A stretch of DNA of 64,000 nucleotides from Minisyncoccota bacterium (GTDB lineage: Bacteria > Patescibacteriota > Minisyncoccia > JAHIHE01 > JAGLIN01). Where the stretch lies: assembly GCA_041661265.1 (NCBI GenBank), contig JBAZUT010000002.1, positions 140,316 through 204,315 on the forward strand, in the 5' to 3' direction. Made by a program: the position numbers and the translations under genes. The notes beneath the pieces were generated by a model that was given only the letters and a program-made list of their open reading frames with translations, had not been told where the DNA came from and made no database searches. This document shows, piece after piece, positions 12,829-62,936 of this stretch (its first letter is position 1; the number at the start of each line of letters is the position of its first letter).

Positions 12829-12899
12829 TTCGGGAACAGGGATTCGAACCCCAATTAGTTGCTCCAGAGGCAACTGTCCTACCGTTAGACGATTCCCGA
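12829..12899 (-). tRNA. tRNA-Gln (anticodon CUG)
   Basis: Cloverleaf folded by hand. Acceptor UCGGGAA/UUCCCGA with the U1:A72 pair typical of tRNA-Gln. Anticodon loop CUCUGGA, T-loop UUCGAAU. CCA is not encoded. Confidence 0.8.
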
Positions 12900-13011: not shown

Positions 13012-13926
13012 TTATATCTTCAGATATCTCCTGATGGCGATCACGCTGCTTATCACGCCAATTCCCACGCCCATTGAAAGCAGCAATAATGTGATATTGT
13101 AAAGATTTCCGATAAAATAGTTATTAAGATCGAATCCCGGTATGAATTGCGCGATCTTTGGAGAAACATAGGAAACGGCCGGAAACATCAGCGCGATCGC
13201 AACCGCACAGCTTACGACACCAAAAACGATTCCCTCGATGATAAATGGCATCCTGATATACCAATTCCCCGCACCGACCAGCCTCATGATCTCGATCTCA
13301 GTCTTATGCGCATACATTGCAAGCCTTATAGTATTGAATGCGACCATAACGCCGATAAGCACGAAAAGAACGCTGAGCGCCAATATGCCTTCCTTGATGG
13401 CCGCAAGAATATTTGAAAAATTATTTATCGCAGTCTCATTCTCTTTGAAATTCACTTTTTCGATTATATCCTTGTAGTTCTCGTTTCCGACTACGAAATT
13501 ATCTATATCTTTATACTGATCGAGCTCGTTTGCCTTCACATTGAGAACCGCAAAAAGCGGATTATCCCCCAATTCCGTCAATGAATCATTGATATAACTG
13601 TCATCCTTATGCGCTTCTTTGAAATTCGTAAGTGCCTGATCCTTCGATATATATTCAACATTTTTTACATCACTCCGTCCCTGAAGATCCTTCTGAAGCT
13701 CCAGGATCTTTCCCTCATCCGCGTTGTCTTTGAATTGCACTGTGATATCGATCTTCTCCTTCAATGCCCCGAGAGCATGATCTCCGATCGCATCCACTGC
13801 AAGCATCACCGTCACCGTGAAAAGAGATATAACCAGAATTATGACCGTTGCGACATTAAGCCATATATTTCGGAGGAGGTCCTTGCTTGCGGAAACCAGA
13901 AGTCTTTTTATTTTATTTCGAAACAT
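13012..13926 (-). CDS. ftsX: cell-division permease-like protein FtsX
   Basis: N-terminal cytoplasmic segment, TM1, a large extracytoplasmic loop and three C-terminal TMs. Lies immediately downstream of ftsE. Confidence 0.8.
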   Translation of the reverse strand: MFRNKIKRLLVSASKDLLRNIWLNVATVIILVISLFTVTVMLAVDAIGDHALGALKEKIDITVQFKDNADEGKILELQKDLQGRSDVKNVEYISKDQALTNFKEAHKDDSYINDSLTELGDNPLFAVLNVKANELDQYKDIDNFVVGNENYKDIIEKVNFKENETAINNFSNILAAIKEGILALSVLFVLIGVMVAFNTIRLAMYAHKTEIEIMRLVGAGNWYIRMPFIIEGIVFGVVSCAVAIALMFPAVSYVSPKIAQFIPGFDLNNYFIGNLYNITLLLLSMGVGIGVISSVIAIRRYLKI

Positions 13927-13941
13927 CTATTTTGCTCTTAA

Positions 13942-14691
13942 TTAAATAATATATTTTCCCTTATCCAGCTGATCCTTGATTATCCTTCCCCTGTCAACCG
14001 TTATAACGCGCTTGTTGATCAGATTCACGATCTCTCTGTTGTGTGTTGCAAGAACGATCGTCGTTCCAAACTGGTTGATCTTCATCAGAAGCTGAACGAC
14101 ATCCCACGTGTTCACAAGATCCAAATTTCCCGTCGGCTCATCCGCAATTATTATGTCAGGCCTGTGCACCAGTGCTCGCGCTATTGCAGTCCTCTGTTTC
14201 TCTCCGCCCGAAAGTTCATTGACATAGCTGTTATATTTTTTCAGAAGTCCCACGATCTCCAGGACCTGCGACACGTCTTCCCTTATATCTTTGTCCGATC
14301 TTCCCGAAACTTCCATAGCGAAAGCCACATTCTCAAAAACGGTTTTCCTGTCCAAAAGCTTGAAGTCCTGAAAAACAACTCCGATGTGGCGCCTCAGGAT
14401 CGGCAGTCTTCCGCTTTTTATCTTGCTTATATCTTTCCCTCTTATAAGGACATTTCCCTTGCTTGGCTTTTCTTCAGCAAAAATCAACTTCAATAAAGTT
14501 GATTTTCCCGCGCCGCTTTGGCCTACTATTGAAACAAACTCGCCGCTCGAGATGGAAAAATTTATGTCCTCCAAGGCCGTAGCGTTCGTATTATAATACT
14601 TATAGACATCATCAAAAACTATCATCTTGTTTTCAAAATTTACATTTCTTAAATTACTTTGCTCTTGATTTGTAGACTTTTCTTCTTGCAT
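13942..14691 (-). CDS. ftsE: cell-division ATP-binding protein FtsE (ABC ATPase)
   Basis: Walker A GQSGAGKST, ABC signature LSGGEKQR and Walker B IIIADEPTGNLD. The true start may be the internal Met at 14625. Confidence 0.9.
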   Translation of the reverse strand: MQEEKSTNQEQSNLRNVNFENKMIVFDDVYKYYNTNATALEDINFSISSGEFVSIVGQSGAGKSTLLKLIFAEEKPSKGNVLIRGKDISKIKSGRLPILRRHIGVVFQDFKLLDRKTVFENVAFAMEVSGRSDKDIREDVSQVLEIVGLLKKYNSYVNELSGGEKQRTAIARALVHRPDIIIADEPTGNLDLVNTWDVVQLLMKINQFGTTIVLATHNREIVNLINKRVITVDRGRIIKDQLDKGKYII

Positions 14692-15118
14692 ATTCTGAAA
14701 CTTTACCTTTGTTCCATTGCTGAACCGGCCTCAAATAACCCACCACCCTCGAATAAACTTCGCATGGCTGTTCGATGAGACATTTTGGACACACGAAATG
14801 CTCTCCCGGAAGATACCCGTGATTCGGACACACACTGAAAGTCGGCGTAATGGAAAGATATGGAAGGGCATATTTCTCAAACACTTTTTTTATCAAAATC
14901 TTCGCCTCTTTTCCGCTTGGAAGCCTTTCCCCCAAAAAAGCATGAAGAACGGTTCCTCCCGTATATTTCGTCTGGAGCGGATCCTGCAGTTTCAGAGCCT
15001 CAAAAAGGTCATCTGTGTGGCCAACCGGAAGCTGTGTAGAGTTCGTATAGAAAGGATCCCTGGGAAGCTCCCTTGTTTCCTTTGTCTCTGTCTTCTCCAA
15101 TAACACGTTCTTTGCCAT
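14654..15118 (-). CDS. standalone C-terminal domain of anaerobic ribonucleoside-triphosphate reductase (NrdD-like glycyl-radical domain with Zn ribbon)
   Basis: LPVGHTDDLFEALKLQDPLQTKYTGGTV block, Cys/His cluster CPNHG...CPKC...C, an RVVGY glycyl-radical-type motif and a trailing NKGKxxE...RRK. The ORF is only 154 aa, whereas full NrdD is ~600-700 aa. Confidence 0.6.
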   Translation of the reverse strand: MAKNVLLEKTETKETRELPRDPFYTNSTQLPVGHTDDLFEALKLQDPLQTKYTGGTVLHAFLGERLPSGKEAKILIKKVFEKYALPYLSITPTFSVCPNHGYLPGEHFVCPKCLIEQPCEVYSRVVGYLRPVQQWNKGKVSEYARRKVYKSRAK

Positions 15119-15346
15119 ATATTTGAATTATTTTTTAACTTGTATGAGCATTATAGCACAGATTGAAATTTATATGAATAGCGTCTGCGTTTCTTCGTTT
15201 AAACATACAATTTATGCCATTAAATAATACGATACAAAGAATTATCAATTCCTACTCTTCAATCAATGATCAAAAAAAATTATCGATTGAATATTGTAAA
15301 ATTGAAAATTTATTGAAAATTGATAATTGTGAATTGGAAATTTTCA

Positions 15347-16457
15347 CTATTTCCTATCGCTCCTTTGGACCACTCCCTTAAGCCTCGCCTCGATGAACAT
15401 GTCGATATTGCCATTCAGAACTTCTTCCGCATTCGAAGTTTCCACTCCCGTTCTATGGTCTTTGACCATTTTATACGGATGAAGAACATAGGACCTGATC
15501 TGATTTCCCCATTCTGCAGAAGTGAACTCTCCGCGAAGCTTCTTTTTCTCCTCCTCCTCTTTTTCCTGCTGCAATTTATATAATTTTGATCTCAAGATCT
15601 GCATTGCCCTTTCTTTATTCTGCAGCTGGCTTCTTTCGTTCTGGCATTCCACAACTGTTTTGGTCGGAATATGCGTGATCCTGACAGCCGAATCGGTTTT
15701 ATTCACTTTCTGGCCTCCGGCTCCGCTTGACCTGAACGTATCGATCCGCAGATCTTCGTCTTTAATTTTTTCTTCATCCTCAGAAGCGATCTCGGGAAGA
15801 ACTTCAACAAGCGCGAACGATGTCTGCCGGAGATTGTCTGCATTGAACGGGGAAAGGCGCACAAGCCTGTGCACTCCCGCTTCGTTCTTCAAATGGCCAT
15901 ATGCATATGCGCCCGAAACCATGAACATTACGCTCTTGATCCCGGCTTCCTCCCCTCTGGACATATGTATGATCTCCGTTTTATATTTATGGTCTTCACT
16001 GTATCGGAGATACATCCGAAGCAGCATTTCCGACCAATCCTGCGCATCAACCCCTCCCGCACCGCTATGTATCGCCAAGATCGCGCTCGCTCCGTCATAT
16101 TTCCCGCTCATCAAAGCTTCGAATTCATGCTCCAAAAAAGTTTTTTCCAGCTTAAAAAGTTTTTCTTTCGTTTCTTTCAGCAGATCTTTGTCTTTTTTCT
16201 CATCAATGACGCTCAACATCTCATCGAGCTCGTTTATCCTGTTTTCCATACTTTCCCAAAAATCCACGATGTTTTTGTATTCATCGAGCTTTCGCATGAC
16301 CTCTTTCGCCTTTCTGGTGTCGAGCCAGAAACCTTTCTCGTTTATATCAGCGTCGAAACCCACGATCTCAGCTTTTTTCTTACGGATGTCAAAGACAGTC
16401 CTTCACAAGAAGGGTCCTTTTTTTTAGGTCTTTAATTTTTTCTATGGTTTCTTTCAT
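15347..16457 (-). CDS. prfB: peptide chain release factor 2, expressed through a +1 programmed ribosomal frameshift
   Basis: GGQ motif (SGAGGQKVNKTDSAVRITHIPT) and the RF2-specific SPF motif. A short ORF0 (MKETIEKIKDLKKRTLLVKDCL) ends at CUU UGA C; the +1 frame continues into the main ORF. Confidence 0.85.
16388..16400 (-). promoter_or_regulatory. RF2 +1 programmed frameshift site (AAGGAC UGU CUU UGA C)
   Basis: Slippery CUU followed by in-frame UGA and C, with an SD-like AAGGA a few nt upstream. This matches the autoregulatory prfB site of other bacteria. Confidence 0.8.
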
Positions 16458-18290: not shown

Positions 18291-18363
18291 AGCCACCTGT
18301 CGGAGTCGAACCGACGACCTACGGTTTACGATACCGTTGCTCTGCCAATTGAGCTAAGGTGGC
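18291..18363 (-). tRNA. tRNA-Thr (anticodon CGU)
   Basis: Hand-folded cloverleaf: GCCACCU/AGGUGGC acceptor, GCUC/GAGC D-stem, anticodon loop AUCGUAA, T-loop UUCGACU. Confidence 0.85.
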
Positions 18364-21682: not shown

Positions 21683-21753
21683 AGCGAGTGAAGGGAATCG
21701 AACCCTCGACTCAACCTTGGGAAGGTCGCGTATTGCCATTATACTACACTCGC
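21683..21753 (-). tRNA. tRNA-Gly (anticodon CCC)
   Basis: Hand-folded: acceptor GCGAGUG/CACUCGC, D-stem GUAU/AUAC, anticodon loop UUCCCAA, T-loop UUCGAUU. Confidence 0.85.
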
Positions 21754-30731: not shown

Positions 30732-30804
30732 CGCGGGGTAGAGCAGCGGCAGCTCGCAAGGCCCATAACCTTGAGGACGCAGGTTCGAATCCTGCCCCCG
30801 CAAC
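30732..30804 (+). tRNA. initiator tRNA-fMet (anticodon CAU)
   Basis: Acceptor CGCGGGG...CCCCGCA-A with the C1:A72 mismatch that marks bacterial initiators. Anticodon loop CCCAUAA carries C at position 33, which is unusual. T-loop UUCGAAU. Confidence 0.8.
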
Positions 30805-30906: not shown

Positions 30907-30980
30907 GCCAGGGTAGCTCAGTTGGCTAGAGCGTGGGACTCATAAGCCCGAGGTCGTGGGTTCGATCCCCACTCCTGGCA
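30907..30980 (+). tRNA. tRNA-Met or tRNA-Ile2 (anticodon CAU)
   Basis: Acceptor GCCAGGG/UCCUGGC, anticodon loop CUCAUAA, T-loop UUCGAUC. Elongator Met and lysidine-Ile cannot be told apart from sequence alone. Confidence 0.75.
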
Positions 30981-31274: not shown

Positions 31275-31348
31275 GGGGGCGTAGCTCAGTTGGTTAGAGC
31301 GACTGCCTGTCACGCAGTAGGTCACCGGTTCGAGCCCGGCCGTCCCCG
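31275..31348 (+). tRNA. tRNA-Asp (anticodon GUC)
   Basis: Hand-folded: acceptor GGGGGCG/CGUCCCC, discriminator G73, anticodon loop CUGUCAC, T-loop UUCGAGC. Confidence 0.85.
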
Positions 31349-31741: not shown

Positions 31742-34700
31742 TTATGGAGTTGTCTCGTCCCACTTGAGGGTACTTAGAACGGGTACTGTATTGGAATCAG
31801 TATATATAGGGGAGTTGTTCACAGCTCTTACTCTATAGAATGCAAATCCCGGAAGCGGATCATTATCCATGCATATCCTGTTATCGGAATCAACCGGGAA
31901 ATCCGCGACATTCAGGCATATGACTTCTGCCGAACTGAAATCCGAATTATCATCCCTGTAGACCGTATATACCGGCGGTCCGCCTTTTACAGAATACTCT
32001 GCCGCAGACCAATCCAACCTTACCCTATTCGGAAGATTTTCATAATCAAGCATAAAGTCTCCCGGAGGAGCGATCGGAACATAAACGGGAGATATGATAT
32101 TTGAACTCGTCGTGCCTGCCGCATTCACTGCCCTGATCTGATATTCATAGGTCGTATCCTCCTGGGCTGTCAGATCATTGAATGTAACAAAACCTGTTGG
32201 AGGAGGATCCTCATAATCGGTTCCCGAGACCATCGAATCCAAAGGCGTTGAATAGGCTGCCGTCGCTTTATTGATGAACAGGCCGAACAGGTCATCCATC
32301 TTTTCGCCCATGCCCACATAAGCAAACTCCGAATCACCCTGGAGCCTTCTGAATATCTCATATGAAGTTTCATTCTGCGTATCGCTCCATTTGATCTCAA
32401 CATTACCGCCCGCACTCAAGGTGTAGCTTGCGGAAACAAGAGAAAGGAATGGCGGATAAAAAGGCGGAATATTCAGACAATCGCAAGATGTTGTCTGCAA
32501 GCTGGGATCCGATTCCACCGAATTATCAACGCCCGAGCCCACAGCTTCCACTTTATATACATAATTCTCCACACTGTTTATATTGCCGTCAATATAGGTT
32601 CTGGCCAGATACGGCATATTCTCCCTGATCTTGCTGAAATTTGTTTCGCCTGCCGACACATTCTTTCTCAAAATATTATACGAGAAGGTCTTGCTTTCGT
32701 CATAGGGCGCCCAATTGATCTGCATACGCGATGAAGAACCCGCGCATATCGGCAACACGGTGTTATCGGTATTGCCCGGCAAAGCTCCGCCGCATACATA
32801 TCCGGAATCCCTGCTGATCACGGGTTTTGCGGGAACATCAAAGCACTCCATGGCAATGGCTGTCTTTTCTTCGGAAAATGCGACGCTGCTGCTTCCATGC
32901 GCCTCAATATAATAATCATAGCTGGCGCTGCTTTCAACATTCAGGTCGATATATGAAGTCAAAGTTGTCCCCGGACAATTAATACATGTATATGCCGCAA
33001 ACGGCTCGCTGGTGCGCTTTTTATATATGGTCCAATAGGATGTGTTCGGATCCGGCAGCCACGAAAGCGCTATCTGCGTTCCCGAAACATCACAACCCGG
33101 AGTCAGGATCAGATTCGCCTGAACCGGCGAACAATCCGGCGCAATAATGGAAACTTCATTCGACATAGCGCTCTCATTTCCGATCCCCATCGCCTTCACC
33201 GCATATTTATAGTTTTTATTCGATTCCAGAGGAAGAGAACTTAGTATATTCGGAGAATCAGACTGTCTTTCGGGACCATTGATCAATGTTCCGTCGGAAC
33301 CATTCCCGGAATTGTCATATGCCGCTACTCCCGCTTTTTCATCAAAATGCCAGACACCGGCCAGGCCAAGTTCGTTTTTATAGATAGCATTATATTGCTC
33401 CGCAATTTCTATTCCACTTAAACTTCTTCCGTAGATGCGGACCTCGTCGATCGATCCGTCAAAAAGCTCATGCCACTGCGGTGACCCGCCCTGGCGCGCG
33501 CCGATCGTTACCGGCGCATCGCTCAATATCGTATTGCTTAATGAATTTTCATCGATTGTAACACCAAGAGAGATCCCGTCTTCATATATCCTTACGCCAC
33601 TTGCCAGACTGGAACCGTCATAAGTGATCACGTAATGGTGCCAACCGCCATCATTCAGCATGCTTGGCGATGTAGTGCTCACCGTGATAGCGTTTGAAGA
33701 CCAAGTATTGACCATCATGAAAGATATGGTTCCAGCCCTCACCTGCGAGGTTGGAAAATAGTAATTCGTTATCAGATGCCATCCTCTATACGGACTGTAA
33801 TCCGACGCCTTTGTGATCACTTCCTGAATTCCGGTACTTGATGCATCCGGCTTAAGCCAAGCTGTGATCGAAAATGCTCGATCTCGCTCAAAATCAAAGT
33901 TTGATTCATTCGCGATTGCCGCATAATCATCCGATCCATCAAACTGCAGGCTCCTCGACCCGCCATCGGTTATTGGCGACCTGACGGAAAAATAGACGGA
34001 TTGCAGAGAATCTGAGACATTATTTCGATATAAATTATAAGAATAAGCATTAGCACTTGCCGTCCAGGACAGATCCGCATATGGCACGTTCAGATCGCAA
34101 TAAGTACTGCCGAGAGCCAGAGTAGAAACGTCAGGAACTCCGCAGAACAATGTCGTCACCGACCTCGAGCTCGAAAAGGATGTGAGGGCGGTGGGCCCTA
34201 TTGCTTTTATCCAATAGTAATATGTCCAAAGATCCTGAAGTCCCGCCGAACTGTCCGTCCATGCCCTGGAATTGAATTCAGCAAGATCGGAAGGAATGGT
34301 TTTGTCCAAAGCCTTAACTAGCAATGCCGAACCCATGTTATCGATCGTATTGCGATATATCTCATATTTTTGGGTGCCGGAAGGAAAATCATCCGACCAC
34401 GAGATCATATTATAGGGATCATTTGTACTGCAATTGGAGTAAATTGGGTCAATAACCGGCGTGAAAGGAACGCAATAATTGCCGATGCCGATCAAGGCAA
34501 CATTGGAACCTGCTCCCTCACCTGCGTCATTTTCCGCTTTGACGACATAGGAATAGGCAGTGTTGACCGCTATACCCATATCATCATAGGAATTTGTCGT
34601 TCTGCTCGTCAGATAGGATCCATCTCGATAAATGTTATAAGAAGTGGCGTTTGGAACATTGTCCCACCCGAGAGCCGCATAGGGGTTCGAGCCAGAACAT

Positions 34701-37700
34701 GCAAAAGATGCGTTCAGACTTGCTACCGGCGGCATTGCCTCACAGGAAAAGGTCTCTGTGGCTCCCGCAGAGAAAGAGAGTAAGCCCGTCGGACCGTTTG
34801 CCTTAATCCAATAGAGATATTCGGTTAACGGCAAGAGCGGCCCATTATCCGTCCATGTCAGAGTATTTTTGCCGACTGTCTGCAATAGCGCTGCCGAATC
34901 GATTGAAACGATCCGGACATTATCTATCCAAGCCCTATCGCTTCCGCCGATCGTACTGTCATCTTTGGCATAAACCCAGCGAAAACTGTGCGCTCCTGCC
35001 GAGATAGGCACGATCATTTCCGCGAAAGATGCCATGGACGTTCCGCTTATCCTGTTCCTGTATCCGGTAGCTCTTGTGCACCCATCATTGTCCAGGCAAA
35101 AAAGAAGAAAATCATAACTATCTTCAGAACTGACTTTCCAATGGAACCTTAATGCGGATGGGCTGGAGACCGTGATGTCATAATCAATAAAAGCGGATTG
35201 ACTGTTTCCAATTGCACCACTGGCGGCCGAAGCCGATCCATCGCTTGAGGCCGACGTATCCCTGAACCAATTCGCATCTCCTCCGGTCGTCCATCCGGGA
35301 GGCGTAAAAGTTACGCTTTCAAAATTAGAGATTGAGACGCTGCCGGTGCTTCTATAAATTTCAAAATTATTGGTATTATCGGGCGTTGCATCCGTCCATG
35401 AGACAGTATTCTTCGACTGATCGCTTTCGCAAACCGTTACGATCGGATCAATAGCCGGCACCGACGGCGTGCAATAGTGTCCAGCCGCGATCGAAATGAC
35501 ATTTGAATCCGCCCCTTGTCCGAAAGGGCTTCTGCCTCTGACGGTGTATCCATACGCAGTATTGACATCAATAGTATAATCATCGTGAGTAAGGGTTGTT
35601 ACATTTGTCAAAAATATCCCGTTCCTATATACGTCATAAGAAGTCGCATGTCCGATCGAAAGCCAAGACATATGCGCATACGGGTTCGAAGGGGGCGTTC
35701 CGGAACATTGGAATGAACCTATCAGAGTGTTTGTGGACTCGGGAGGTCCGCAAAAAAGATTCACAATATTCGTAGCATCGGAAAGGGTCGTATAATTCAT
35801 TGGGGCCGGCCCGATAGACTGGACCCAATAGTAATATGTCGCCTCATCTTCCAGCCGGGGACTTGAAGGATTGTCGATAATTGTTCTGGCACCAAAGGCA
35901 GCAGGTTGGGTCGCCTTGTCAATAGTTTTGATCAAAACAGTCCCGGCATCCACAAAATTATTTGTCGTTCCTCTGTATATCTTATATATTGCCGTGTTCG
36001 GATATGTTTCACCGGTCCAACTTATATTATTGGCGGGATTTCCACCCGAACAACCCGCGCCTAAACTGACTACCGGCTTTTGCGGAGTACAATATTTTCC
36101 AAGCGAGATCGATGCGATGCTTGAATCAGAACTCTCCCCTCCCGAATTCTTTGCTCTCACCGTATAGTCATAAAGCGTATTGACAGTGACCGTGGTGTCT
36201 TCATGCGTCAAAACTGTTTCATTCACCAAAAATAATCCATTGCGATAGATATCATATGAAGCCGCGCCGGGAACGGCATTCCAGCTTAGCGACACCCTGG
36301 GAGTCGAAGCAGGCGTACCGGTGCATGAAAAAGCGGCAGTTAATCCCGTAGGGGCAGACAAAACAGCGCAATAAACCGTTGTAACAACACGATTGGCAGA
36401 CTGGCTGCTTGCACTGCTCGGACTGATTGATTTGATATAATACGTGTAATTAGTTGAATCGCTGAGTCCCGCCCCGGCATTATCATCCGTCCATTTTCTT
36501 AGATCCGGATCTATGCTTTGGGCGGCAGTTCTGACCAAAACGCCATTCCGATAGATCTCATAAGTTGAAGTATCAATCGCATACGGCCATGAAATATCCA
36601 CTACCGCTTTGTTCGAACTGCATAGCGGAGACAAGACCAGATTTGATCTTTGAGGCGGACATTCCGGCGTTAAAAATGGAGATATCGTATTTGAACTGGC
36701 GCTGCCGCCGGAACTGAATGCATCCACCCTCCAGCTGTAATTTGTCTTTGAGAGAAGACCGCTTCCCCATGCCGGATCATCGCTGTCCGCTCCGGCAGCG
36801 CTTCCCAATGTCGCATTTCTGCCATAGTTCGAACTATCCGATGCGATCTGCCCGCCTCCTTCATCGAAATACCACAAACCGACCAGATCCGCTTCGTTGG
36901 CATAAACTCCATTCTTGTGCTCCGCCACTTCCGTTGAAGAAAGGGCGCGCCTATAGATCCTTACTTCTCCGACAGAACCATTGAAATAATACGGATTATA
37001 GCTTCTTCCGATCTCAAGGGCTTTTGTCGGATTGCTCAATGTATTGATCGTTCCATTGTATTCGCCTGCACTGGATCCATTCACCCACGCCTCAAGATGA
37101 TTGGTTTTTTTTATTCCCACAATATGCGTCCAGCCCCAGGTTTCATAAAGAGGAAGTGAAACCGCCTTATATCCGGAGCTATCTTTTACTCCGAATGAAT
37201 ATCTGTTACTGGGAGAATATGCCTCTGAAATAAAATATCCGGTCGAACCCCATCCGCCCTTATTGACTATCCCTCTGCCATAAGTGCCGCCATCGGCTTT
37301 TGCCCAAACTTCAACCGTAAAATCATTTGTGGTCATGTCCAGATCGGCGGAAGTGCCTGCATTCACGTAATCATCGGATCCGTCAAAATTCAGAATATTT
37401 CCGTGTCCGACATCGCCAAAGGGCGATATTACGCCATTGATCGTGGCAGGAGAAGACACAGAACGCAAAAGGTCATATGAAGTGGCATTGGCGCTGTTTG
37501 TCCAATCCAATTGCACTTTCGGATATGGGCCTTGGCAGCTTGCACTTGGAGGATCGGTCAGGATGAAGGGTCCGGGAGGCGAGCAATTGCTCGTCGTTAC
37601 CGGCTGATAGACGGAAGATGCCTCCTGGCCGGCATTGTAACCCGCCGCCACAACCTTATATTTATAAGTTGTTGTGATAAGCAAAGGATTCGGATCGATG

Positions 37701-39694
37701 ATCGAATATGTCCCTCCGACCGGAACAGTCGCAATTGGAAGTCCCAGATCCTCTCTGAAAACTTTAAAGTTTTGGGTGTTTGCATCATCCGAAATCCAGC
37801 TGATAGTTACTTTCGGGTTTCCGCCGGAACAAGAATCCAGCAGACTGACAACCGGTAAAGTTGGGAGACAGGAATCCGTTGTTATGGACTGCACAGCGGA
37901 ATATCCCCGCGCGACACCCGGATCGCCATTGGCAATGACCTGATAATAATAAGCGGTAGATGGATTCAGACTGTCGGTGTCATTCCAAGAATATGTGGTA
38001 TTGCCCACGGTGGCTTTCGTTGCCATACCGGCCTCAGACAACCCTCTTTTTATTTCATAGTTGATCGTGTTGCTTGTTGAAGACCATGAAAGACCAACCT
38101 TCGGATTGCCAAGCACGCACGATCCGGCAATAGAAAGAATGGGGGCATTTGGCGGAATACAATTCGATGCATTAATGGTCTCAGCCATGCTCGGAGCGGT
38201 CTGAGTCCCTTCCCTGCCGTTTGCAATGACGTAGTAGGTATATTCGGACCCCGCCTCGACTCCGGAATCGATATATGTCGTATTTGTCAGATTAAGAAGA
38301 GATGTGCCATTCCTATAAAGAGTATAATAGATCACGTTTTCCGAAGACGTCCAGCTGAGCCTTATCCTGGAATCCCCGCTGGCGCAGAAGACCTCGGGAC
38401 TGTTCAGGACCGGAGTGGGAGACGGTGGAACTATCGTGGCGCAATTAATGCTCTGGCTCACCGTATTGGAAGTGAAATTCGGATAACCGGTGACTCCGGC
38501 AACAACCTTATAATTCTGAGTACAGTTCGCCCCCGGACAATCGTCGGGGCTTAAATAGTCCACGAAAGAATTCGTACCGCTGCCGTACTGCCCCAAAAAA
38601 GATGTATCGTTTCTGAATAAATTATAAAAATCGGAATTCATTATCTTCGTCCAGCTGACATGCATCTCGGGATTTCCGGAGGCATCGCACATGCCGCTTG
38701 AACTGGCAAATGGCGAACAATAATAATTGGCTGTTTGTTTTGACAGTGAATTTTTTGCAACTTCCTCAAGATCCTTTATCCAGACCGCCTTGATGAAATA
38801 ATCCATGTTTCCGCTCTGCCAATAATTCAGAGGCATACTTCCCACAAGACTATCATCGTATGTCGTAGTGGCGGCATCAACGCTCATTAACAAAGAATAA
38901 TCCGGATCGCTTGGGGTTTTGCGGTATATTTCATATCTTGCCGCTCCCATCAGGCTGTTCCAGGATAAGCTTATTTTTTGCCCTCCCGGAGCACTGCTAT
39001 TGCAGCTTGTATTTGAACTCAATATTACAGGACAAGCCCTTGCCTCGATCGAAACGCTTGCCGAATTTTTTTTCGTTCCATCCTGCCAATTCGCCCGCAC
39101 GGAATATGAATATGAATTGGTTCCGATGATATTCGGACCGTCGTCATAAACATGGTCCGTTGTCTCGCCAATCTTCACGAACTCCGCTTCTTCGAGTGTG
39201 TCATTCTTCCTCAGGATCTCATATTTCAGGATATTCCCCGTTGCAGTGCTCCAGGTCAGACTATTGTGCGGACCATTGGCCTTGCACTCTGCATCCATCT
39301 CGGAAAAAACAGCTGCACAATAATTGGCTCCCGATGTCTTTTCGTTGGAAAAGATATCTCCGGATTTAACAGCTTTTATTTTGTAATGATAGCTTTTATC
39401 GCTTAAAGCGGAATTGTCAGTGTAGGACAAGGCTTCTGTATTTCCGATCTCCGAATAATTGATCTCGCTGGACAGTTTTCTCATAACATAGTACGTCGGA
39501 TTTCCGGGAATATCCGATGACCATGAAAGATCCACCACTCTTTTCGCATCAAGACAATCTTGGAGAGGTTCATTCTGGGTGATTGTCGAAGCAAAGGATG
39601 TCGGGACGAAAATAAAAAACAGCATAAAACCGATCAGACCTATAAACAAGATTCTTAACTTTGTGAAATCATATATCAAATGCATTTTTATCAT
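31742..39694 (-). CDS. giant secreted surface protein (2650 aa): N-terminal signal/TM, long array of FN3-like beta-sandwich repeats and two LamG (concanavalin-A-like) domains; C-terminal tail ...LKWDETTP
   Basis: N-terminal hydrophobic segment ILFIGLIGFMLFFIFVPTSFAS. Recurrent LSW...YxIYR... FN3-like units. Two LamG-like blocks (LNFDGSDDYVNAG...GEVRIYRRALSSTEV and LQFDGSDDYAAIA...IDEVRIYGRSLSGIEI). Confidence 0.85.
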   Translation of the reverse strand: MIKMHLIYDFTKLRILFIGLIGFMLFFIFVPTSFASTITQNEPLQDCLDAKRVVDLSWSSDIPGNPTYYVMRKLSSEINYSEIGNTEALSYTDNSALSDKSYHYKIKAVKSGDIFSNEKTSGANYCAAVFSEMDAECKANGPHNSLTWSTATGNILKYEILRKNDTLEEAEFVKIGETTDHVYDDGPNIIGTNSYSYSVRANWQDGTKKNSASVSIEARACPVILSSNTSCNSSAPGGQKISLSWNSLMGAARYEIYRKTPSDPDYSLLMSVDAATTTYDDSLVGSMPLNYWQSGNMDYFIKAVWIKDLEEVAKNSLSKQTANYYCSPFASSSGMCDASGNPEMHVSWTKIMNSDFYNLFRNDTSFLGQYGSGTNSFVDYLSPDDCPGANCTQNYKVVAGVTGYPNFTSNTVSQSINCATIVPPSPTPVLNSPEVFCASGDSRIRLSWTSSENVIYYTLYRNGTSLLNLTNTTYIDSGVEAGSEYTYYVIANGREGTQTAPSMAETINASNCIPPNAPILSIAGSCVLGNPKVGLSWSSTSNTINYEIKRGLSEAGMATKATVGNTTYSWNDTDSLNPSTAYYYQVIANGDPGVARGYSAVQSITTDSCLPTLPVVSLLDSCSGGNPKVTISWISDDANTQNFKVFREDLGLPIATVPVGGTYSIIDPNPLLITTTYKYKVVAAGYNAGQEASSVYQPVTTSNCSPPGPFILTDPPSASCQGPYPKVQLDWTNSANATSYDLLRSVSSPATINGVISPFGDVGHGNILNFDGSDDYVNAGTSADLDMTTNDFTVEVWAKADGGTYGRGIVNKGGWGSTGYFISEAYSPSNRYSFGVKDSSGYKAVSLPLYETWGWTHIVGIKKTNHLEAWVNGSSAGEYNGTINTLSNPTKALEIGRSYNPYYFNGSVGEVRIYRRALSSTEVAEHKNGVYANEADLVGLWYFDEGGGQIASDSSNYGRNATLGSAAGADSDDPAWGSGLLSKTNYSWRVDAFSSGGSASSNTISPFLTPECPPQRSNLVLSPLCSSNKAVVDISWPYAIDTSTYEIYRNGVLVRTAAQSIDPDLRKWTDDNAGAGLSDSTNYTYYIKSISPSSASSQSANRVVTTVYCAVLSAPTGLTAAFSCTGTPASTPRVSLSWNAVPGAASYDIYRNGLFLVNETVLTHEDTTVTVNTLYDYTVRAKNSGGESSDSSIASISLGKYCTPQKPVVSLGAGCSGGNPANNISWTGETYPNTAIYKIYRGTTNNFVDAGTVLIKTIDKATQPAAFGARTIIDNPSSPRLEDEATYYYWVQSIGPAPMNYTTLSDATNIVNLFCGPPESTNTLIGSFQCSGTPPSNPYAHMSWLSIGHATSYDVYRNGIFLTNVTTLTHDDYTIDVNTAYGYTVRGRSPFGQGADSNVISIAAGHYCTPSVPAIDPIVTVCESDQSKNTVSWTDATPDNTNNFEIYRSTGSVSISNFESVTFTPPGWTTGGDANWFRDTSASSDGSASAASGAIGNSQSAFIDYDITVSSPSALRFHWKVSSEDSYDFLLFCLDNDGCTRATGYRNRISGTSMASFAEMIVPISAGAHSFRWVYAKDDSTIGGSDRAWIDNVRIVSIDSAALLQTVGKNTLTWTDNGPLLPLTEYLYWIKANGPTGLLSFSAGATETFSCEAMPPVASLNASFACSGSNPYAALGWDNVPNATSYNIYRDGSYLTSRTTNSYDDMGIAVNTAYSYVVKAENDAGEGAGSNVALIGIGNYCVPFTPVIDPIYSNCSTNDPYNMISWSDDFPSGTQKYEIYRNTIDNMGSALLVKALDKTIPSDLAEFNSRAWTDSSAGLQDLWTYYYWIKAIGPTALTSFSSSRSVTTLFCGVPDVSTLALGSTYCDLNVPYADLSWTASANAYSYNLYRNNVSDSLQSVYFSVRSPITDGGSRSLQFDGSDDYAAIANESNFDFERDRAFSITAWLKPDASSTGIQEVITKASDYSPYRGWHLITNYYFPTSQVRAGTISFMMVNTWSSNAITVSTTSPSMLNDGGWHHYVITYDGSSLASGVRIYEDGISLGVTIDENSLSNTILSDAPVTIGARQGGSPQWHELFDGSIDEVRIYGRSLSGIEIAEQYNAIYKNELGLAGVWHFDEKAGVAAYDNSGNGSDGTLINGPERQSDSPNILSSLPLESNKNYKYAVKAMGIGNESAMSNEVSIIAPDCSPVQANLILTPGCDVSGTQIALSWLPDPNTSYWTIYKKRTSEPFAAYTCINCPGTTLTSYIDLNVESSASYDYYIEAHGSSSVAFSEEKTAIAMECFDVPAKPVISRDSGYVCGGALPGNTDNTVLPICAGSSSRMQINWAPYDESKTFSYNILRKNVSAGETNFSKIRENMPYLARTYIDGNINSVENYVYKVEAVGSGVDNSVESDPSLQTTSCDCLNIPPFYPPFLSLVSASYTLSAGGNVEIKWSDTQNETSYEIFRRLQGDSEFAYVGMGEKMDDLFGLFINKATAAYSTPLDSMVSGTDYEDPPPTGFVTFNDLTAQEDTTYEYQIRAVNAAGTTSSNIISPVYVPIAPPGDFMLDYENLPNRVRLDWSAAEYSVKGGPPVYTVYRDDNSDFSSAEVICLNVADFPVDSDNRICMDNDPLPGFAFYRVRAVNNSPIYTDSNTVPVLSTLKWDETTP

Positions 39695-53883: not shown

Positions 53884-56800
53884 CTATGGCGCAGCTTCGT
53901 TCCATTTCGGCCTCTCGCTCATGACATCTATGGGCTGCAGAGTGAATCTTTCGCTCGCATAGCAACTATATACCTGAGCGGAAGAATCGGTTACTTTCAG
54001 GTCCACCGCAAAGGTTCCCTGATCTGCGTAATTGTGGACTACATTATAACCCAAAGCCGGTCCGGGGTCGGAGAAGGTGTCAATGTCATTCGGCGTCCCA
54101 TCTCCAAAGATCCATTCCATTTCTTTTATATAATATCCGGCCGCAACCGAAGTCGGCTCCGCAAGCGGATTTCCGGAAACATCATTAAAAGGATCGAGTG
54201 TCACGTCCATGAATTGCAGGATGTCCGTATCCGGAGAGTATGAAAAATTAGCGACAGGATAAGAATGGTCCGGGGTCGCAATAGGACTATTCGGATCCGA
54301 ACTGTTATAAGGGAACTTCACCCCCGGAGTCACTGCGCTTGCATTATCCTCACTGTCATAAACAGTAACATTCCATGAATATGTAAAATTTCCATAATCT
54401 ATAAACCCGGGACAGAAGCCGTTGATATCATTACCCGTCAAAGTGTTTATGAAATCAAATTGTTTTCCCGTCGAACACACGGCCAGGTCGCTCCTCTCAA
54501 CGTCAACCCGATATGCACTCTGAGACGTTCCTGCCGCGTCATCTTCCACGTCAGTGAAGACCCACGAGATCCTTTCCGCCCACGGATCCTGCCTGCAAGG
54601 ATCGATCGAGGTCGCGTTTGCATTCGTAACGGACGGGTTAAACGTTCCGACGCTGACGCAATAATCAGCTCCGTTGCAAAAACTGATCCAGCCTGTCACG
54701 TCGCCTCCCCACGCCCAGCCGTTGAAATTTCCGCCACTCAGGATAACTTTGTAATTGCCCGAATTAACCGGAATCGTCAGATTATCAATGCCGCCGCAAG
54801 CCACGTCAAGAAACTCATTATTATCCGTATCGCAATCATCGGCCAATATGATGCCATCGCCTCCGCAGCTTACATCAAGTCTCCCGTTATTATCCGTATC
54901 GCAATTATTTATATTTCCTTTCAAATTGATCCACCCGTCCCAGTCACCGGTTTCCCAAGGATTTTTAAGCGCGCCCGAACAGTCTGCACTAAACACCGAA
55001 CAAGCCCTCGCCCAGCCGATAAAATCACCTGCGCCATCAAGACTTGCCTGGCAGGCTCCCGACGGACAGCCGGAAATATCGCCAAAATCAGGATCTCCCG
55101 AAACTCCATAACCGAAAGTTATCCACCCGATATTCTCACTCCATGCATAACCCGACAGAATTCCGCCTGAGTCCAGATTTACTCCATAAGATTTGACTGC
55201 GCCATTGGTCTGGCAGCCTGGAGGCGCGGGAGTTGAACCGACAGGAACCCCTTCGCTGTTTCCTTCATATATCCCATCCTTGTCAACATCGCAATTCTTG
55301 CTGTTGAAGCTTATCCAGCCTGCAGTCGAGCTCCACGCAAAACCCATAACATTTGAATTTTGAGCTTCGCACCCGGGCTTTGAAGGATCCGTCGTAATAT
55401 TCGGTCCGTCCGTTACCGCGCTCGAAAGAACATCCGTCTCATCCCAAACAGTGAGATCCCAATACAAAGTTTTTCCATATGCAGCCGCTCCAAAATCCGC
55501 ATCATAGGTTGTGCTCGATGATAATACAATTCCCGTATTCAAAATATTATTCGTCTTTCCTGCATCATCATACACCCTGATCCGGTATGATTTTTGCGCA
55601 AATTGCGGAGTCGTATTGGATTGATATGTCCAGGAAAGATCATATCTGTTGTCGCTTGTGCAATTATTTATCGGACCCGCAACACTAAGACCGGACACCG
55701 TTGGCGGGACACATTGAAAAACGGTTCCCTGCTGACCATTGTCGCCCCCATTGATTCCCGTACCGCCATTAACATTAAAGCTGCCTCCGTAAGTATTAGA
55801 ATTAGAACAATTCACAATCCTTCCGCCACCGCCGCCGCCATTGCCATTTATATTTCCTCCATTGCCGCCATTTGAAGTGATAAGACCGGAAGCCAAACCG
55901 GTTAGATTATTTGAAATCAAGAAAATCGATCCTCCGGCGCCTCCCCCTCTCGGGCCAACCGCACTTAAACCGGAAGCGTCAATTATTCCGCTGTTGGTAA
56001 GACTATTTGTGATCATTATTTTGATCATTCCGCCGCCAGTGCCACTGGCAGGAGCTCCGGCACCCGCGAAAGCCGAGCCGCCATCGCCTCCGATTCCGCC
56101 ATATCCGCCTCCTCTATTGTTCTGGAAACTACCCGTTTGTCCTCCCGAACCCAGATCATTCGGATTAGTGAGAGATCCATACGTATTGCCTCCGGTGTTT
56201 CCCGAACCGGGTCCTTCGTCGGCAGAATAACCCTTTCCAATCGCATCAATTTTGCCTCCGGCAATTATAGTAAGATTATTAAGATTCAAATCGATATAAT
56301 TAACCTTGGCATTTGTGTTCGCAATATGACTCAGCGTTCCAGCGATGGTTAAATTCCTTAAATTTGGAAAATTCGTCGTAGTTGGCGAGAAAGTATTCAC
56401 GGTAAAGTTGCCGTTAAGCGTCATATCCGTGAAACCCAGGCTTATTGCATTGAGATTCCCGGTATTGGTTCCAATACCGTTTATGTTTATCACATCCGCG
56501 CCATTAACCGTAAACAGACTGTTATTATCCAGCACGCCGACAGATGTAAGATTCGTGACGCCATTTGCGGTAAAAGTTCCATTATTGGTTATACCCCAGA
56601 AAGACCATGCCCCCGTATTTAAAGCTGTGATATTTACACCCGGATTGATCTTGAAATGCCCTCCATTTGTGATCGTGAGATAATCAATGTTCATATTGGC
56701 ACCGACAGGAGTCATTTCCCCGGCCACACCGTTATTTATCAGACTTAAATATCCGTTTGGATTTGCACCATCGTCTTTGTCTTTTGAATAAATAGTTCCC

Positions 56801-62340: not shown

Positions 62341-62363
62341 TTTTGTTTTAAACTTCTGAATTA

Positions 62364-62936
62364 TTAGTAAGACTCTTTTATCTGAACCCCTCCCTCGCCG
62401 ATCGCCGTGATATCCGTAACCTCTCCGCATTTATTGATCATTAATTTATATGCATCATTATCTTTTTGGAATGGGACCATTTTATCCTGTCCATCGATCT
62501 TCAAAGTGAATCCTGCTATATCGCATTTTTCACCTGTCAGAACCCGAACCTTGATCTCCCCAAGATCGTCTTTACATTCTCCTTTTGCGATCACAGCAAG
62601 TCTTCCGCCGCATTCCGTGACGTCGGCGTTCGCCTTTTCCCTGTCGGACTTTTCGCGATATTTCTTTTCGATAACATCATTGAGATCGGCTGTTTCAATC
62701 CCATAATTTCCTCCGCAGTCGTATATCTTGCAGCTTTTCGATTCCCGCTCATTGCATAGGTAATTGAGATCGCAACTCTTATCAGCGCAATTATCTTTCA
62801 ATATGCTGCATTTTGCGAAATCAATGCCCTTTTCACCGGCTTCTCGCTTGGACAATACGACAGCCAGGATCGCTCCCAATATAAAAATCGACGAAATAAA
62901 AACAAACAGGGCAATATCTATATTTTTATTTTTCAT
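62364..62936 (-). CDS. Cys-rich single-pass membrane protein (190 aa)
   Basis: TM helix IALFVFISSIFILGAILAVVL and an ectodomain with ~14 Cys (CSILKDNCADKSCDLNYLCNE...). Confidence 0.5.
   Translation of the reverse strand: MKNKNIDIALFVFISSIFILGAILAVVLSKREAGEKGIDFAKCSILKDNCADKSCDLNYLCNERESKSCKIYDCGGNYGIETADLNDVIEKKYREKSDREKANADVTECGGRLAVIAKGECKDDLGEIKVRVLTGEKCDIAGFTLKIDGQDKMVPFQKDNDAYKLMINKCGEVTDITAIGEGGVQIKESY

Follow-up and report, generated by a model that had tools for sequence, protein, structure and literature searches.

The 154-residue protein encoded from ATG to stop at positions 14654..15118 (minus strand) of the window, the whole 64,000-nucleotide stretch of DNA that was analysed, is most likely the C-terminal subunit of a class III ribonucleotide reductase (RNR) whose nrdD has been divided between two genes within a Paceibacterota clade (Patescibacteria/CPR). 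The probability of this reading is put at roughly 85 per cent. The protein appears to complete a two-polypeptide RNR because relatives carry a complementary truncated NrdD and because the short protein itself contains barrel strands, the Cys/His cluster and Gly127. An earlier note had offered three readings of the gene: a remnant, one half of a split nrdD with its other part elsewhere, or an autonomous spare part of the GrcA/YfiD kind. The second is upheld by truncated NrdDs of 577–581 residues with nrdG in the same clade, and by finding both parts in one assembly and on one scaffold; the remnant is rejected, and the spare part as worded there is not supported.

Profile and structure-based alignments place the protein at the very end of NrdD. 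Residues 17–149 match Pfam PF13597 (NRDD; E = 6.2e-45, 154 bits against a cut-off of 26.2) and cover only profile positions 432–562 of 562, and NCBIfam PRK08270 is matched over profile positions 554–682 of 684 (E = 1.9e-57). The PRK08270 equivalog score of 195 against a cut-off of 548 indicates that this is not a whole NrdD, a shortfall expected of a fragment. The protein aligns with residues 518–646 of the 651 of Thermotoga maritima NrdD (4coi) and with residues 609–735, in chain numbering, of P. copri NrdD (8p23). Its motifs are DPFYTNS at residue 21, GGTV at 54, CPNH at 97, CPKC at 110 and RVVGY at 124, so that the C-terminal-only match claimed at first sight holds, as do the NrdD motifs, Cys/His site and RVxGY loop quoted with it. 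The core is indeed missing, although it amounts to some 570 residues (the ATP-cone and eight barrel strands) and not ~450; the protein does contain the glycyl-radical/Zn domain as described, but the last two barrel strands are present as well.

Two parts can be told apart in this C-piece. Residues 1–20 (15059..15118, minus strand; MAKNVLLEKTETKETRELPR) form a charged N-terminal leader without counterpart in fused NrdDs, where a short linker of varying length stands in its place. In the alignment of 13 copies the orthologous leaders are rich in lysine, and model confidence in this stretch is low (mean pLDDT 43 and then 60 for the first two ten-residue blocks). Residues 21–151 (14666..15058, minus strand) make up the NrdD-homologous body, delimited by alignment to P. 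copri NrdD and by an AlphaFold model (pLDDT 83.9), and a structure search with the C-piece model returned NrdD structures only. The body runs helix, strand, helix, strand and then glycyl radical domain, with the last two barrel strands of NrdD (strands 9–10) at about ORF residues 58–61 and 88–97. In the numbering of PMC11226230 the alignment begins at about residue 605 of P. copri NrdD, of which the core spans 123–671 and the glycyl radical domain 676–739 (PMC11226230); about 75 residues of barrel, comprising two helices and two strands, precede the radical domain in the ORF. Only the last two of the ten barrel strands are thus present, and the finger loop and remaining sites are absent.

The residues that NrdD chemistry would draw on in this region are conserved. 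The cluster C97, H100, C110 and C113, with C119 close by (14762..14830, minus strand), corresponds to the structural Zn site of NrdD, and metal binding is predicted. In 77 homologues C97 and C110 never vary and H100 and C113 hardly ever do, and the cluster is fully invariant across 12 short and phage copies. The glycyl-radical loop RVVGY (14735..14749, minus strand) contains the predicted radical site Gly127 (codon 14738–14740), which aligns with G715 of 8p23_A, or Gly711 in the numbering of PMC11226230, and in the AlphaFold model occupies a beta-hairpin tip. R124, G127 and Y128 are invariant in the 77 sequences.

As a stand-alone gene the short form is found in 10 species representatives at 145–156 residues, with one further copy ending at a contig edge, and wherever flanks are present the gene order is prfB-C-ftsE-ftsX. 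A gene identical to that of the window occurs in samples ERZ27249449 and SRR18595301. Every other complete match among the best 80 loci of the genome scan, all of at least 59% identity, is the end of an nrdD of ~700 residues.

The complementary part is encoded elsewhere in related genomes. With the N-terminal core of the closest fused relative as query, the best matches were dozens of proteins of 577–581 residues, 74–79% identical, that consist of an ATP-cone and an NRDD domain and are labelled Pacebacteria or Parcubacteria. These N-pieces stand in the order ftsA-ftsZ-N-nrdG at every locus examined, nrdG adjoins them in all related loci examined, and no leftover C-piece was found near an N-piece. 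The boundaries abut: N-pieces end in ...YPDIITA(AI) and a stop, 2–4 residues past the homologous region, and C-pieces resume with (D/E)P(F/Y)YTNS. Between them the two pieces cover fused NrdD without gap or overlap, each as a separately translatable conserved ORF, and the catalytic residues are invariant in both. In assembly GCA_023132875.1 the N-piece lies on JAGLXN010000007.1 and the C-piece on JAGLXN010000003.1; on scaffold_1 of ERZ23498665 (831,018 bp) the N-piece occupies 332,391–334,127 and the C-piece 798,915–799,385 on the opposite strand, ~465 kb apart. From these relatives we infer that the large piece would be present in the genome of the window as well.

A sister lineage carries an adjacent form of the split, in which an N-piece of 608 residues is followed after 110 nt by a C-piece of 145 residues and then by nrdG. 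Such spacers range from 110 to 160 nt, and the 608-residue N-piece was found on 7 contigs from JGI, NCBI and Logan assemblies. The break itself probably sits in a surface loop, a placement drawn from alignment to solved structures and from the variable length of the linker because the full-length AlphaFold model (P0270; pLDDT 62, pTM 0.41) is of low confidence and served for secondary structure only. Three adjacent NRDD fragments in an unrelated lineage (L006) were considered as a case of the same split and rejected, being one gene with a frameshift and an in-frame stop.

There is reason to think that the two genes, each transcribed and translated separately, would yield a single reductase. 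The large piece (~578 residues), whose gene adjoins the activase gene nrdG and lies beside ftsZ, holds eight strands of the barrel together with the ATP-cone, the triphosphate-binding motifs HxHD and NLEATPxEG and the Cys finger loop SMCCRL. The small piece, encoded between prfB and ftsE and hundreds of kb away, has the final pair of barrel strands along with the Cys/His cluster and the loop of the glycyl radical. Non-covalent association of the two polypeptides would close the ten-stranded barrel, and NrdG would install a radical at Gly127 in the small piece, from where it would move to the large piece's finger-loop cysteine for NTP reduction. Both the physical assembly of the pieces and their enzyme activity are predictions from sequence.

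Fused NrdD/NrdG systems (T4, Escherichia coli, T. maritima and P. copri; 1H7A, 4COI, 8P23) belong to the same family, PF13597/PRK08270, and share with the split pieces the radical Gly loop, the Cys/His Zn cluster, the Cys finger loop, the HxHD and ATPxE motifs, the ATP-cone and a neighbouring nrdG. Unlike them, the split form has its chain broken between the helix after the third-last barrel strand and the second-last strand, and because the break precedes the last two strands the active-site barrel would consist of two polypeptides. No split class III RNR is described in the literature examined, whereas split class II and phage class Ia enzymes are. The name 'NrdDa' in the literature was considered as that of a split subunit and rejected, as it denotes a phylogenetic subclass.

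The closest precedent in a cellular organism is class II NrdJa/NrdJb of Pseudomonas aeruginosa, likewise a two-polypeptide RNR (Crona et al. 2015, PMC4520616). There NrdJa is the catalytic barrel and NrdJb, the small piece, is a C-terminal functional module whose domains mediate dithiol exchange; both are required, and the pair was termed a unique split RNR in a free-living organism (PMC4520616). Class and chemistry differ from those of the present case, where the break passes through the barrel and the small piece bears the radical cofactor. In Aeromonas phage Aeh1 the large subunit of a class Ia enzyme is likewise fragmented into two ORFs, NrdA-a and NrdA-b, which reassemble without splicing and remain adjacent; insertion of a homing endonuclease gene, mobE, made the break (PMC3045599; PMC3653736). 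In the window's clade the junction is free of mobile elements and the two pieces are unlinked. A phage nrdJ-a/nrdJ-b pair is also described as two consecutive ORFs, whereas the genes of the window's clade are dispersed; adjacency of the kind seen in known split RNRs is absent from this clade (~465 kb) but present in the sister lineage.

The C-piece might instead be an accessory of the GrcA/YfiD type, acquiring a glycyl radical and standing in for the radical domain that an otherwise complete NrdD has lost to cleavage by oxygen, a reading that we regard as very unlikely. GrcA/YfiD is an autonomous glycyl-radical spare part for pyruvate formate-lyase (PFL) (PMC8683613; reviewed in PMC13450708), and phage T4 Y06I is a GrcA homologue according to a reference cited in that review. 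The likeness is considerable: the C-piece too is a small, separate, autonomous protein with a whole glycyl radical domain, a disordered N-terminal tail and perhaps a promoter of its own, it occurs, apparently alone, on three phage-like contigs, JBINOC010002883.1, IMGVR_UViG_3300033145_000694 and IMGVR_UViG_3300035208_000971, much as Y06I does in T4, and it is duplicated in tandem in two species. But GrcA is of the PFL family, consists of the radical domain only and supplements an intact parent, whereas the C-piece is of the NrdD family and supplies, together with two barrel strands, a part that the parent gene lacks. Since the NrdD in the same assembly or on the same scaffold stops exactly at the junction, no intact enzyme is there to be repaired, and the two strands would in any case persist in an intact or oxygen-cleaved NrdD. 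The ORF gave no Pfam match to PFL-type Gly_radical (PF01228) at E ≤ 1, and the structure search with its model brought up neither GrcA nor PFL. Among the best 80 genome loci the same assemblies contribute no second locus, and a second, divergent full-length nrdD may exist in these genomes outside those 80 loci of at least 59% identity. The truncated partner in the same genome and the two barrel strands thus decide against the spare part in its original wording.

The position of the gene lends some colour to a function unrelated to the N-piece, for instance as radical carrier of another enzyme or as a Zn-ribbon regulator tied to ftsE/ftsX. The surroundings between prfB and ftsE-ftsX are conserved clade-wide and the C-piece gene is unlinked from nrdG. 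Upstream is prfB (release factor 2; 15347..16457, main ORF 15347..16363, minus strand; Pfam PCRF and RF-1), with a +1 frameshift site CTTTGAC at 16394–16388 and syntenic in all short-form loci where the upstream flank is present; downstream are ftsE (13942..14691, minus strand; Pfam ABC_tran) and ftsX (13012..13926, minus strand; Pfam FtsX). Orthologues of ftsE align from residues 5–25 of the window ORF, mostly 16–25, and its true start is probably Met23 (14625), which would make the 38-nt overlap with the C-piece an artefact of ORF calling. The neighbours named in the earlier note, prfB and ftsE, are thus as stated there, and the absence of nrdG and of the rest of nrdD beside them was confirmed: in tblastn searches of the 64-kb window, full-length NrdD matched at 15061–14669 only, with no NrdD core, and an NrdG probe found no nrdG. 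That such a function would be the right one is nonetheless very unlikely, given that the N/C boundaries are exactly complementary, that the conserved residues are those of NrdD chemistry, including the substrate-side YTNS and GGT, and that in the adjacent-gene split the C-piece lies between the N-piece and nrdG. The corollary of this idea, an N-piece that is inactive or works differently, is countered by purifying selection on the N-piece and nrdG (pN/pS 0.093 and 0.24), which acts on the C-piece too (0.116).

Between prfB and the C-piece lies a spacer of 228 nt (15119..15346, minus strand), without trace of an NrdD core and without any intron or other RNA family in Rfam. It holds a promoter-like site, TTCATA-17-TATAAT with an upstream TG (15150..15178, minus strand), that scores 10/12 in a consensus scan and lies 32 nt before the ATG. 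This is possibly the C-piece gene's own promoter; the evidence is weak because the scan yielded four such sites in the region, where chance alone would give 2.8. Two other loci (L008 and L019) carry TGTATAAT at a comparable distance from the ATG. No NrdR box with ≤4 mismatches, which would have hinted at co-regulation, was found upstream of either the C-piece or the N-piece genes. The AT-rich leader without Shine-Dalgarno sequence before the C-piece ATG was considered as a special feature and rejected, since such leaders are normal in the window, where just 6/37 genes have a Shine-Dalgarno-like sequence.

Joining of the pieces after expression, through split-intein protein trans-splicing or RNA trans-splicing, would give a single-chain enzyme. 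Inteins, introns and homing endonucleases often target RNR genes, several interrupted phage nrdDs were found in this analysis, and 'fractured genes' with split inteins are mentioned in PMC2677866. Intein halves of the sort that mark such breaks are absent here; with an N-piece tail of 2–4 residues and a C-piece leader of ~20 charged residues there is no room for them, and the leader does not end in His-Asn with a Cys, Ser or Thr behind it. Start and stop codons are present in both pieces, and an Rfam search of the window for group I/II introns was negative, which leaves this explanation with scarcely any likelihood.

Decay after a rearrangement that destroyed nrdD, as might be imagined of a C-terminal part with neither nrdD core nor nrdG nearby and as the disrupted gene of L006 illustrates, is refuted by the selection analysis: across 13 intact copies synonymous sites are saturated while pN is just 0.10–0.20, dN/dS in unsaturated pairs is ~0.05, constraint is stronger than on ftsE and prfB of the same taxa (pN/pS 0.144 and 0.154), neither the radical loop nor the Cys/His cluster varies, and sequence-database clusters hold 126 and 55 members. 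The check for conservation in related genomes with dN/dS below 1, which the earlier note had proposed, thus came out in favour of a functional gene.

The two-polypeptide reading also bears on oxygen damage, as the C-piece may be an obligate yet replaceable subunit, a weaker form of spare part. Apart from the C-pieces, 29 viral contigs encode proteins of 43–123 residues with little beyond the NrdD radical loop, and these are better candidates for spare parts than the C-piece. It is conceivable, though on balance unlikely, that the C-piece is an exchangeable cartridge and that phage C-pieces and viral mini-proteins serve as spare parts. A C-piece cleaved at Gly127 would then be swapped for a fresh one while the 578-residue core was kept, and its supply would be independently controlled through its own locus, promoter and occasional tandem duplicate. 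Phages of these bacteria would need to carry only the C-piece to sustain dNTP synthesis, and the viral proteins of 43–123 residues would be the equivalent device for hosts with fused NrdD. No glycyl radical enzyme beyond PFL would have had a spare-part system before these; a 2026 review gives spare-part proteins as known for formate lyases only and as undetermined for other family members (PMC13450708). The phage C-pieces and mini loop proteins make the question directly testable.

Metabolic reconstructions of these genomes may misjudge RNR status, because NCBI labels the short gene 'hypothetical protein' in most records and the 578-residue piece is annotated as a plain ribonucleoside triphosphate reductase, in a record silent on the missing radical domain. 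Descriptions of glycyl radical enzymes present them as single polypeptides whose radical glycine is buried in their own barrel. In the present case the radical domain comes, with two strands of the barrel, as the product of a separate and unlinked gene that a clade of Patescibacteria conserves, and the oxygen-sensitive radical part of an RNR would be made as a protein of its own in ultra-small bacteria. The arrangement would offer a natural system for studying how an activase recognizes the radical domain, how that domain docks into the barrel and how a damaged module may be exchanged.

The 154-aa ORF on the minus strand of the window (ATG at 15118, stop at 14654) carries every motif quoted for it in the earlier note and matches profiles only at the C-terminal end of NrdD, the class III (anaerobic, glycyl-radical) ribonucleotide reductase. 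Pfam NRDD matches it (E = 6.2e-45) over profile positions 432–562 of 562 and NCBIfam PRK08270 (E = 1.9e-57) over positions 554–682 of 684, the latter with a score far under the whole-protein cut-off, and it aligns with residues 518–646 of 651 in the solved Thermotoga maritima (T. maritima) NrdD and chain residues 609–735 in that of P. copri. Gly127 is the predicted site of the radical, and C97, H100, C110, and C113, plus C119, form the Cys/His cluster. The gene is flanked on the same strand by prfB upstream and by ftsE and ftsX downstream; a full-length NrdD probe and an NrdG probe find no further NrdD sequence and no nrdG (the gene for the radical-SAM activase) within the 64-kb window, not even in the 228 nt that separate prfB from the ORF, so that, as had been claimed, neither nrdG nor the rest of nrdD is adjacent.

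Several other features of the window deserve mention. As is known for RF2 genes, prfB contains the classic programmed +1 frameshift: on the minus strand at 16388–16457, a short ORF runs from 16457 to CTT TGA C at 16394–16388, followed by the main frame. The minus strand also holds two giant ORFs, one at 31742–39694 (2650 aa) and one at 53884–62430 (2848 aa). The GC content is 43.8 per cent, and a Shine–Dalgarno-like sequence precedes only 6 of 37 longer genes, AT-rich leaders right before the ATG being the norm. The only Rfam matches are six tRNA genes, three on the minus strand (12829–12899, 18291–18363, and 21683–21753) and three clustered on the plus strand at 30.7–31.3 kb (30732–30803, 30907–30980, and 31275–31348); no intron is reported by Rfam.

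The suggestion that the short gene is a remnant can be rejected. Dozens of stand-alone homologs of 130–160 aa, at 65–95 per cent identity and in some cases on long contigs, came up in a protein search, and clustering at 90 per cent identity puts 126 sequences in one main cluster and 55 in the other. In most NCBI records the protein is labeled ‘hypothetical’. When a single genome of each species was scanned, the best 80 loci fell cleanly into two kinds: the ten best (75–88 per cent identity) are stand-alone ORFs of 145–156 aa, all in Paceibacterota/Patescibacteria metagenome-assembled genomes, an eleventh stand-alone copy runs off a contig end, a 145-aa copy at locus L026 likewise stands alone but beside its own N-terminal piece, and the remaining complete matches all form the end of an nrdD of ∼700 aa. 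Wherever flanks are present, all of the stand-alone loci of the window's type keep the order prfB, short gene, ftsE, ftsX. None of the 13 copies compared contains a frameshift or stop, and against the window copy they show pN of only 0.10–0.20 at saturated synonymous sites (pS 0.67–0.95), with dN/dS ∼0.05 across 29 unsaturated pairs, so that the ORF is indeed conserved in relatives with dN/dS below 1. Compared over one set of seven taxa, the short gene has a lower pN/pS (0.116) than either ftsE (0.144) or prfB (0.154). Two species representatives carry tandem duplicates (L015:9944–11277, identical at 516/520 nt, with a repeat unit that takes in partial ftsE; L016:9977–11027, identical at 505/505 nt, its copies holding two NCBI protein accessions), which may reflect either a genuine rise in gene dosage or an artefact of assembly.

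The option that the gene is one half of a split nrdD, with the other part elsewhere, is the one borne out in relatives. With residues 1–587 of L020, the closest fused relative (718 aa), as query, the best matches were dozens of proteins of 577–581 aa (ATP-cone plus NRDD; 74–79 per cent identical) on contigs of up to 831 kb labeled Pacebacteria or Parcubacteria. Every such locus examined reads ftsA–ftsZ–nrdD(N)–nrdG, with nrdG encoding a 240-aa radical-SAM protein. These N-terminal pieces end in ...EATPGEGTSYRLAKKDxxKYPDIITA(AI) and a stop codon, the short proteins pick up at (D/E)P(F/Y)YTNS(S/T)QLPV past a charged leader of ∼20 residues, and relative to fused sequences nothing is absent and nothing doubled. 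Assembly GCA_023132875.1 holds both pieces, the N-terminal protein P0306 on JAGLXN010000007.1 and the short gene L018 on JAGLXN010000003.1. On the 831,018-bp scaffold_1 of ERZ23498665 the N-terminal piece (332,391–334,127, nrdG immediately after) and the short gene (798,915–799,385, opposite strand, between prfB and ftsE) lie ∼465 kb apart, and their co-occurrence on one scaffold is therefore independent of binning. In the dispersed-split genomes examined, no leftover C-terminal sequence was found beside the N-terminal piece. Purifying selection acts on the N-terminal piece (pN/pS 0.093) and on nrdG (0.24); in the N-terminal pieces, the HxHD motif, the cysteines of the SMCCRL finger loop, and the NLEATPxEG loop are invariant. 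The NrdD core and nrdG that the earlier note proposed to look for elsewhere were found in related genomes and not in the window.

Related Patescibacteria show three nrdD architectures: one fused gene, two adjacent pieces, or two dispersed pieces, the last being the window's type. In the adjacent type, from another Patescibacteria lineage, the break falls at the same junction (L026:8058–11209; L202:4001–7191; L203) and the order is ftsA–ftsZ–N (608 aa)–110 nt–C (145 aa)–nrdG; the N-terminal pieces, found on seven contigs from JGI, NCBI, and Logan assemblies, are ∼600–608 aa with an acidic tail, and the spacers are 110–160 nt. A neighbor-joining tree of N-terminal cores (578 columns, 300 bootstraps) gives 100 per cent support to the dispersed-split clade, 100 per cent to that clade plus the fused L020 and P0270, and 0 per cent to all split forms without the fused genes, so that either two separate breaks occurred at this one junction or a lineage went back to the fused form. 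The junction, a variable-length linker in fused proteins, is a permissive site whichever origin holds. An intein there was rejected, as room for intein halves is absent. In the fused forms nearest to the dispersed-split clade, L020 (8240–10396) and P0270, the junction linker is unusually long (...DIITAQHYNSDSDKFYDPYYTNSS...) and, given the tree, could be the scar of two re-fused pieces. The same ftsA–ftsZ neighborhood surrounds a broken full-length nrdD at L006:8436–10537 (GCA_017880035.1, 528-kb contig), between ftsZ and nrdG and called as three fragments because it contains a frameshift and an in-frame stop, whether through decay into a pseudogene or through an assembly error; it is distinct from the clean split.

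The most appealing suggestion had been an autonomous spare-part glycyl-radical protein, as GrcA/YfiD is for pyruvate formate-lyase (PFL). In the P. copri NrdD cryo-EM structure the core barrel spans residues 123–671, the triphosphate-binding loop (577–581) follows the third-last strand, and residues 676–739, with Gly711, form the glycyl radical domain (PMC11226230). Deposited chain numbering is offset by +4, so homology to the ORF begins at about residue 605 in the paper's numbering, past the helix after the third-last strand. AlphaFold models the window protein alone confidently (pLDDT 83.9, pTM 0.70), with a disordered tail (1–20), helix 38–52, strand 58–61, helix 69–82, strands 88–97, a small ribbon at the Cys/His cluster, a hairpin (120–131) that bears Gly127 at the tip, and a last helix. 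The top 17 hits of a structure search with this model are NrdD structures only, and no GrcA or PFL entry is among the 50 matches listed. Taken together, domain limits and model show that the ORF comprises the entire radical domain preceded by barrel strands 9–10 and their helices. A core without these parts cannot close its barrel, which argues for an obligate complementing subunit rather than an add-on to a complete enzyme, and against a GrcA-like role; in relatives with the split, the large NrdD piece stops at the junction.

Most likely, and as the reading with the best support, the two genes encode a two-polypeptide class III ribonucleotide reductase: their boundaries are complementary, they occur together in one assembly and on a single scaffold, they and nrdG are under purifying selection, the catalytic residues do not vary, and a sister architecture has the genes adjacent. 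In such an enzyme the N-terminal piece would contribute the thiyl cysteine and eight barrel strands, and would see to substrate binding and allosteric regulation; the C-terminal piece would close the barrel and bear the glycyl radical installed by NrdG. We infer that the pieces physically assemble into an active enzyme, and that the window's own genome encodes the N-terminal piece. Split ribonucleotide reductases as such are already known: class II NrdJa/NrdJb was called a unique split enzyme of a free-living organism (PMC4520616), and NrdA of phage Aeh1 is fragmented by a homing endonuclease (PMC3045599). These differ in class, and searches of the open-access literature found no description of a split class III enzyme, nor any report of NrdD in Patescibacteria.

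Spare-part proteins are known for formate lyases only, according to a 2026 review (PMC13450708). An alignment-based viral scan found 29 IMG/VR contigs (L153–L181) whose sole NrdD-like sequence is an ORF of 43–123 aa (e.g. L155:9965–10114; L153:9809–10135; L175:9725–10114), consisting of a short leader and the NrdD radical loop (...CEVYSRVVGYLRPVQxWNxGK...). Three of the 29 have an N-terminal CxxC...CxxC ribbon and are thus complete radical domains. These mini-proteins pass the Pfam NRDD threshold, but with a match confined to the final 32 positions of the profile. They are intact (pN/pS 0.15–0.44) and neighbor ordinary phage genes, with no NrdD core or nrdG in the flanks examined; no PHROG family is dedicated to them, and GenBank phages carry no such protein as a gene of its own. 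As candidates for spare-part proteins of class III enzymes, they suit the GrcA-like idea much better than the window ORF.

Cultured phages have nrdD interrupted by introns or inteins (PMC3653736), and large in-frame insertions occur in many phage nrdDs here (L097:7262–10456; L098; L101–L105; L118–L121; L150; L151; L182; L185; L193–L198; L201). Those of L097 and L098 lie at the catalytic SMC/CRL site, end in ...HNC, and are intein-like; several others lie just ahead of the radical loop, and L193 has a loop-only match immediately upstream of an nrdD.

The full C-terminal piece (141–153 aa) also stands alone on three phage or phage-like contigs: L007:10001–10441, with portal and SU10-type capsid genes; L096:6912–7337, with tape measure and baseplate hub genes; and L116:9959–10420, with DnaB-like helicase, exonuclease, and HNH endonuclease genes. 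No N-terminal core or nrdG was found in the flanks examined of all three, and the L096 and L116 contigs are absent from three viral N-core scans (the broadest, with general motifs, recovered 327 relatives); the viral N-core matches examined are all directly followed by their own C-terminal part. The L116 piece is 95 per cent identical in its core to host locus L019 and nests within the split-host clade, that of L096 groups with this clade (61 per cent support), and that of L007 is nearest to the window's own protein (77 per cent). The phage pieces derive from the split-host clade. Together, these findings suggest that phages provide hosts whose NrdD is split with just the subunit that carries the radical.
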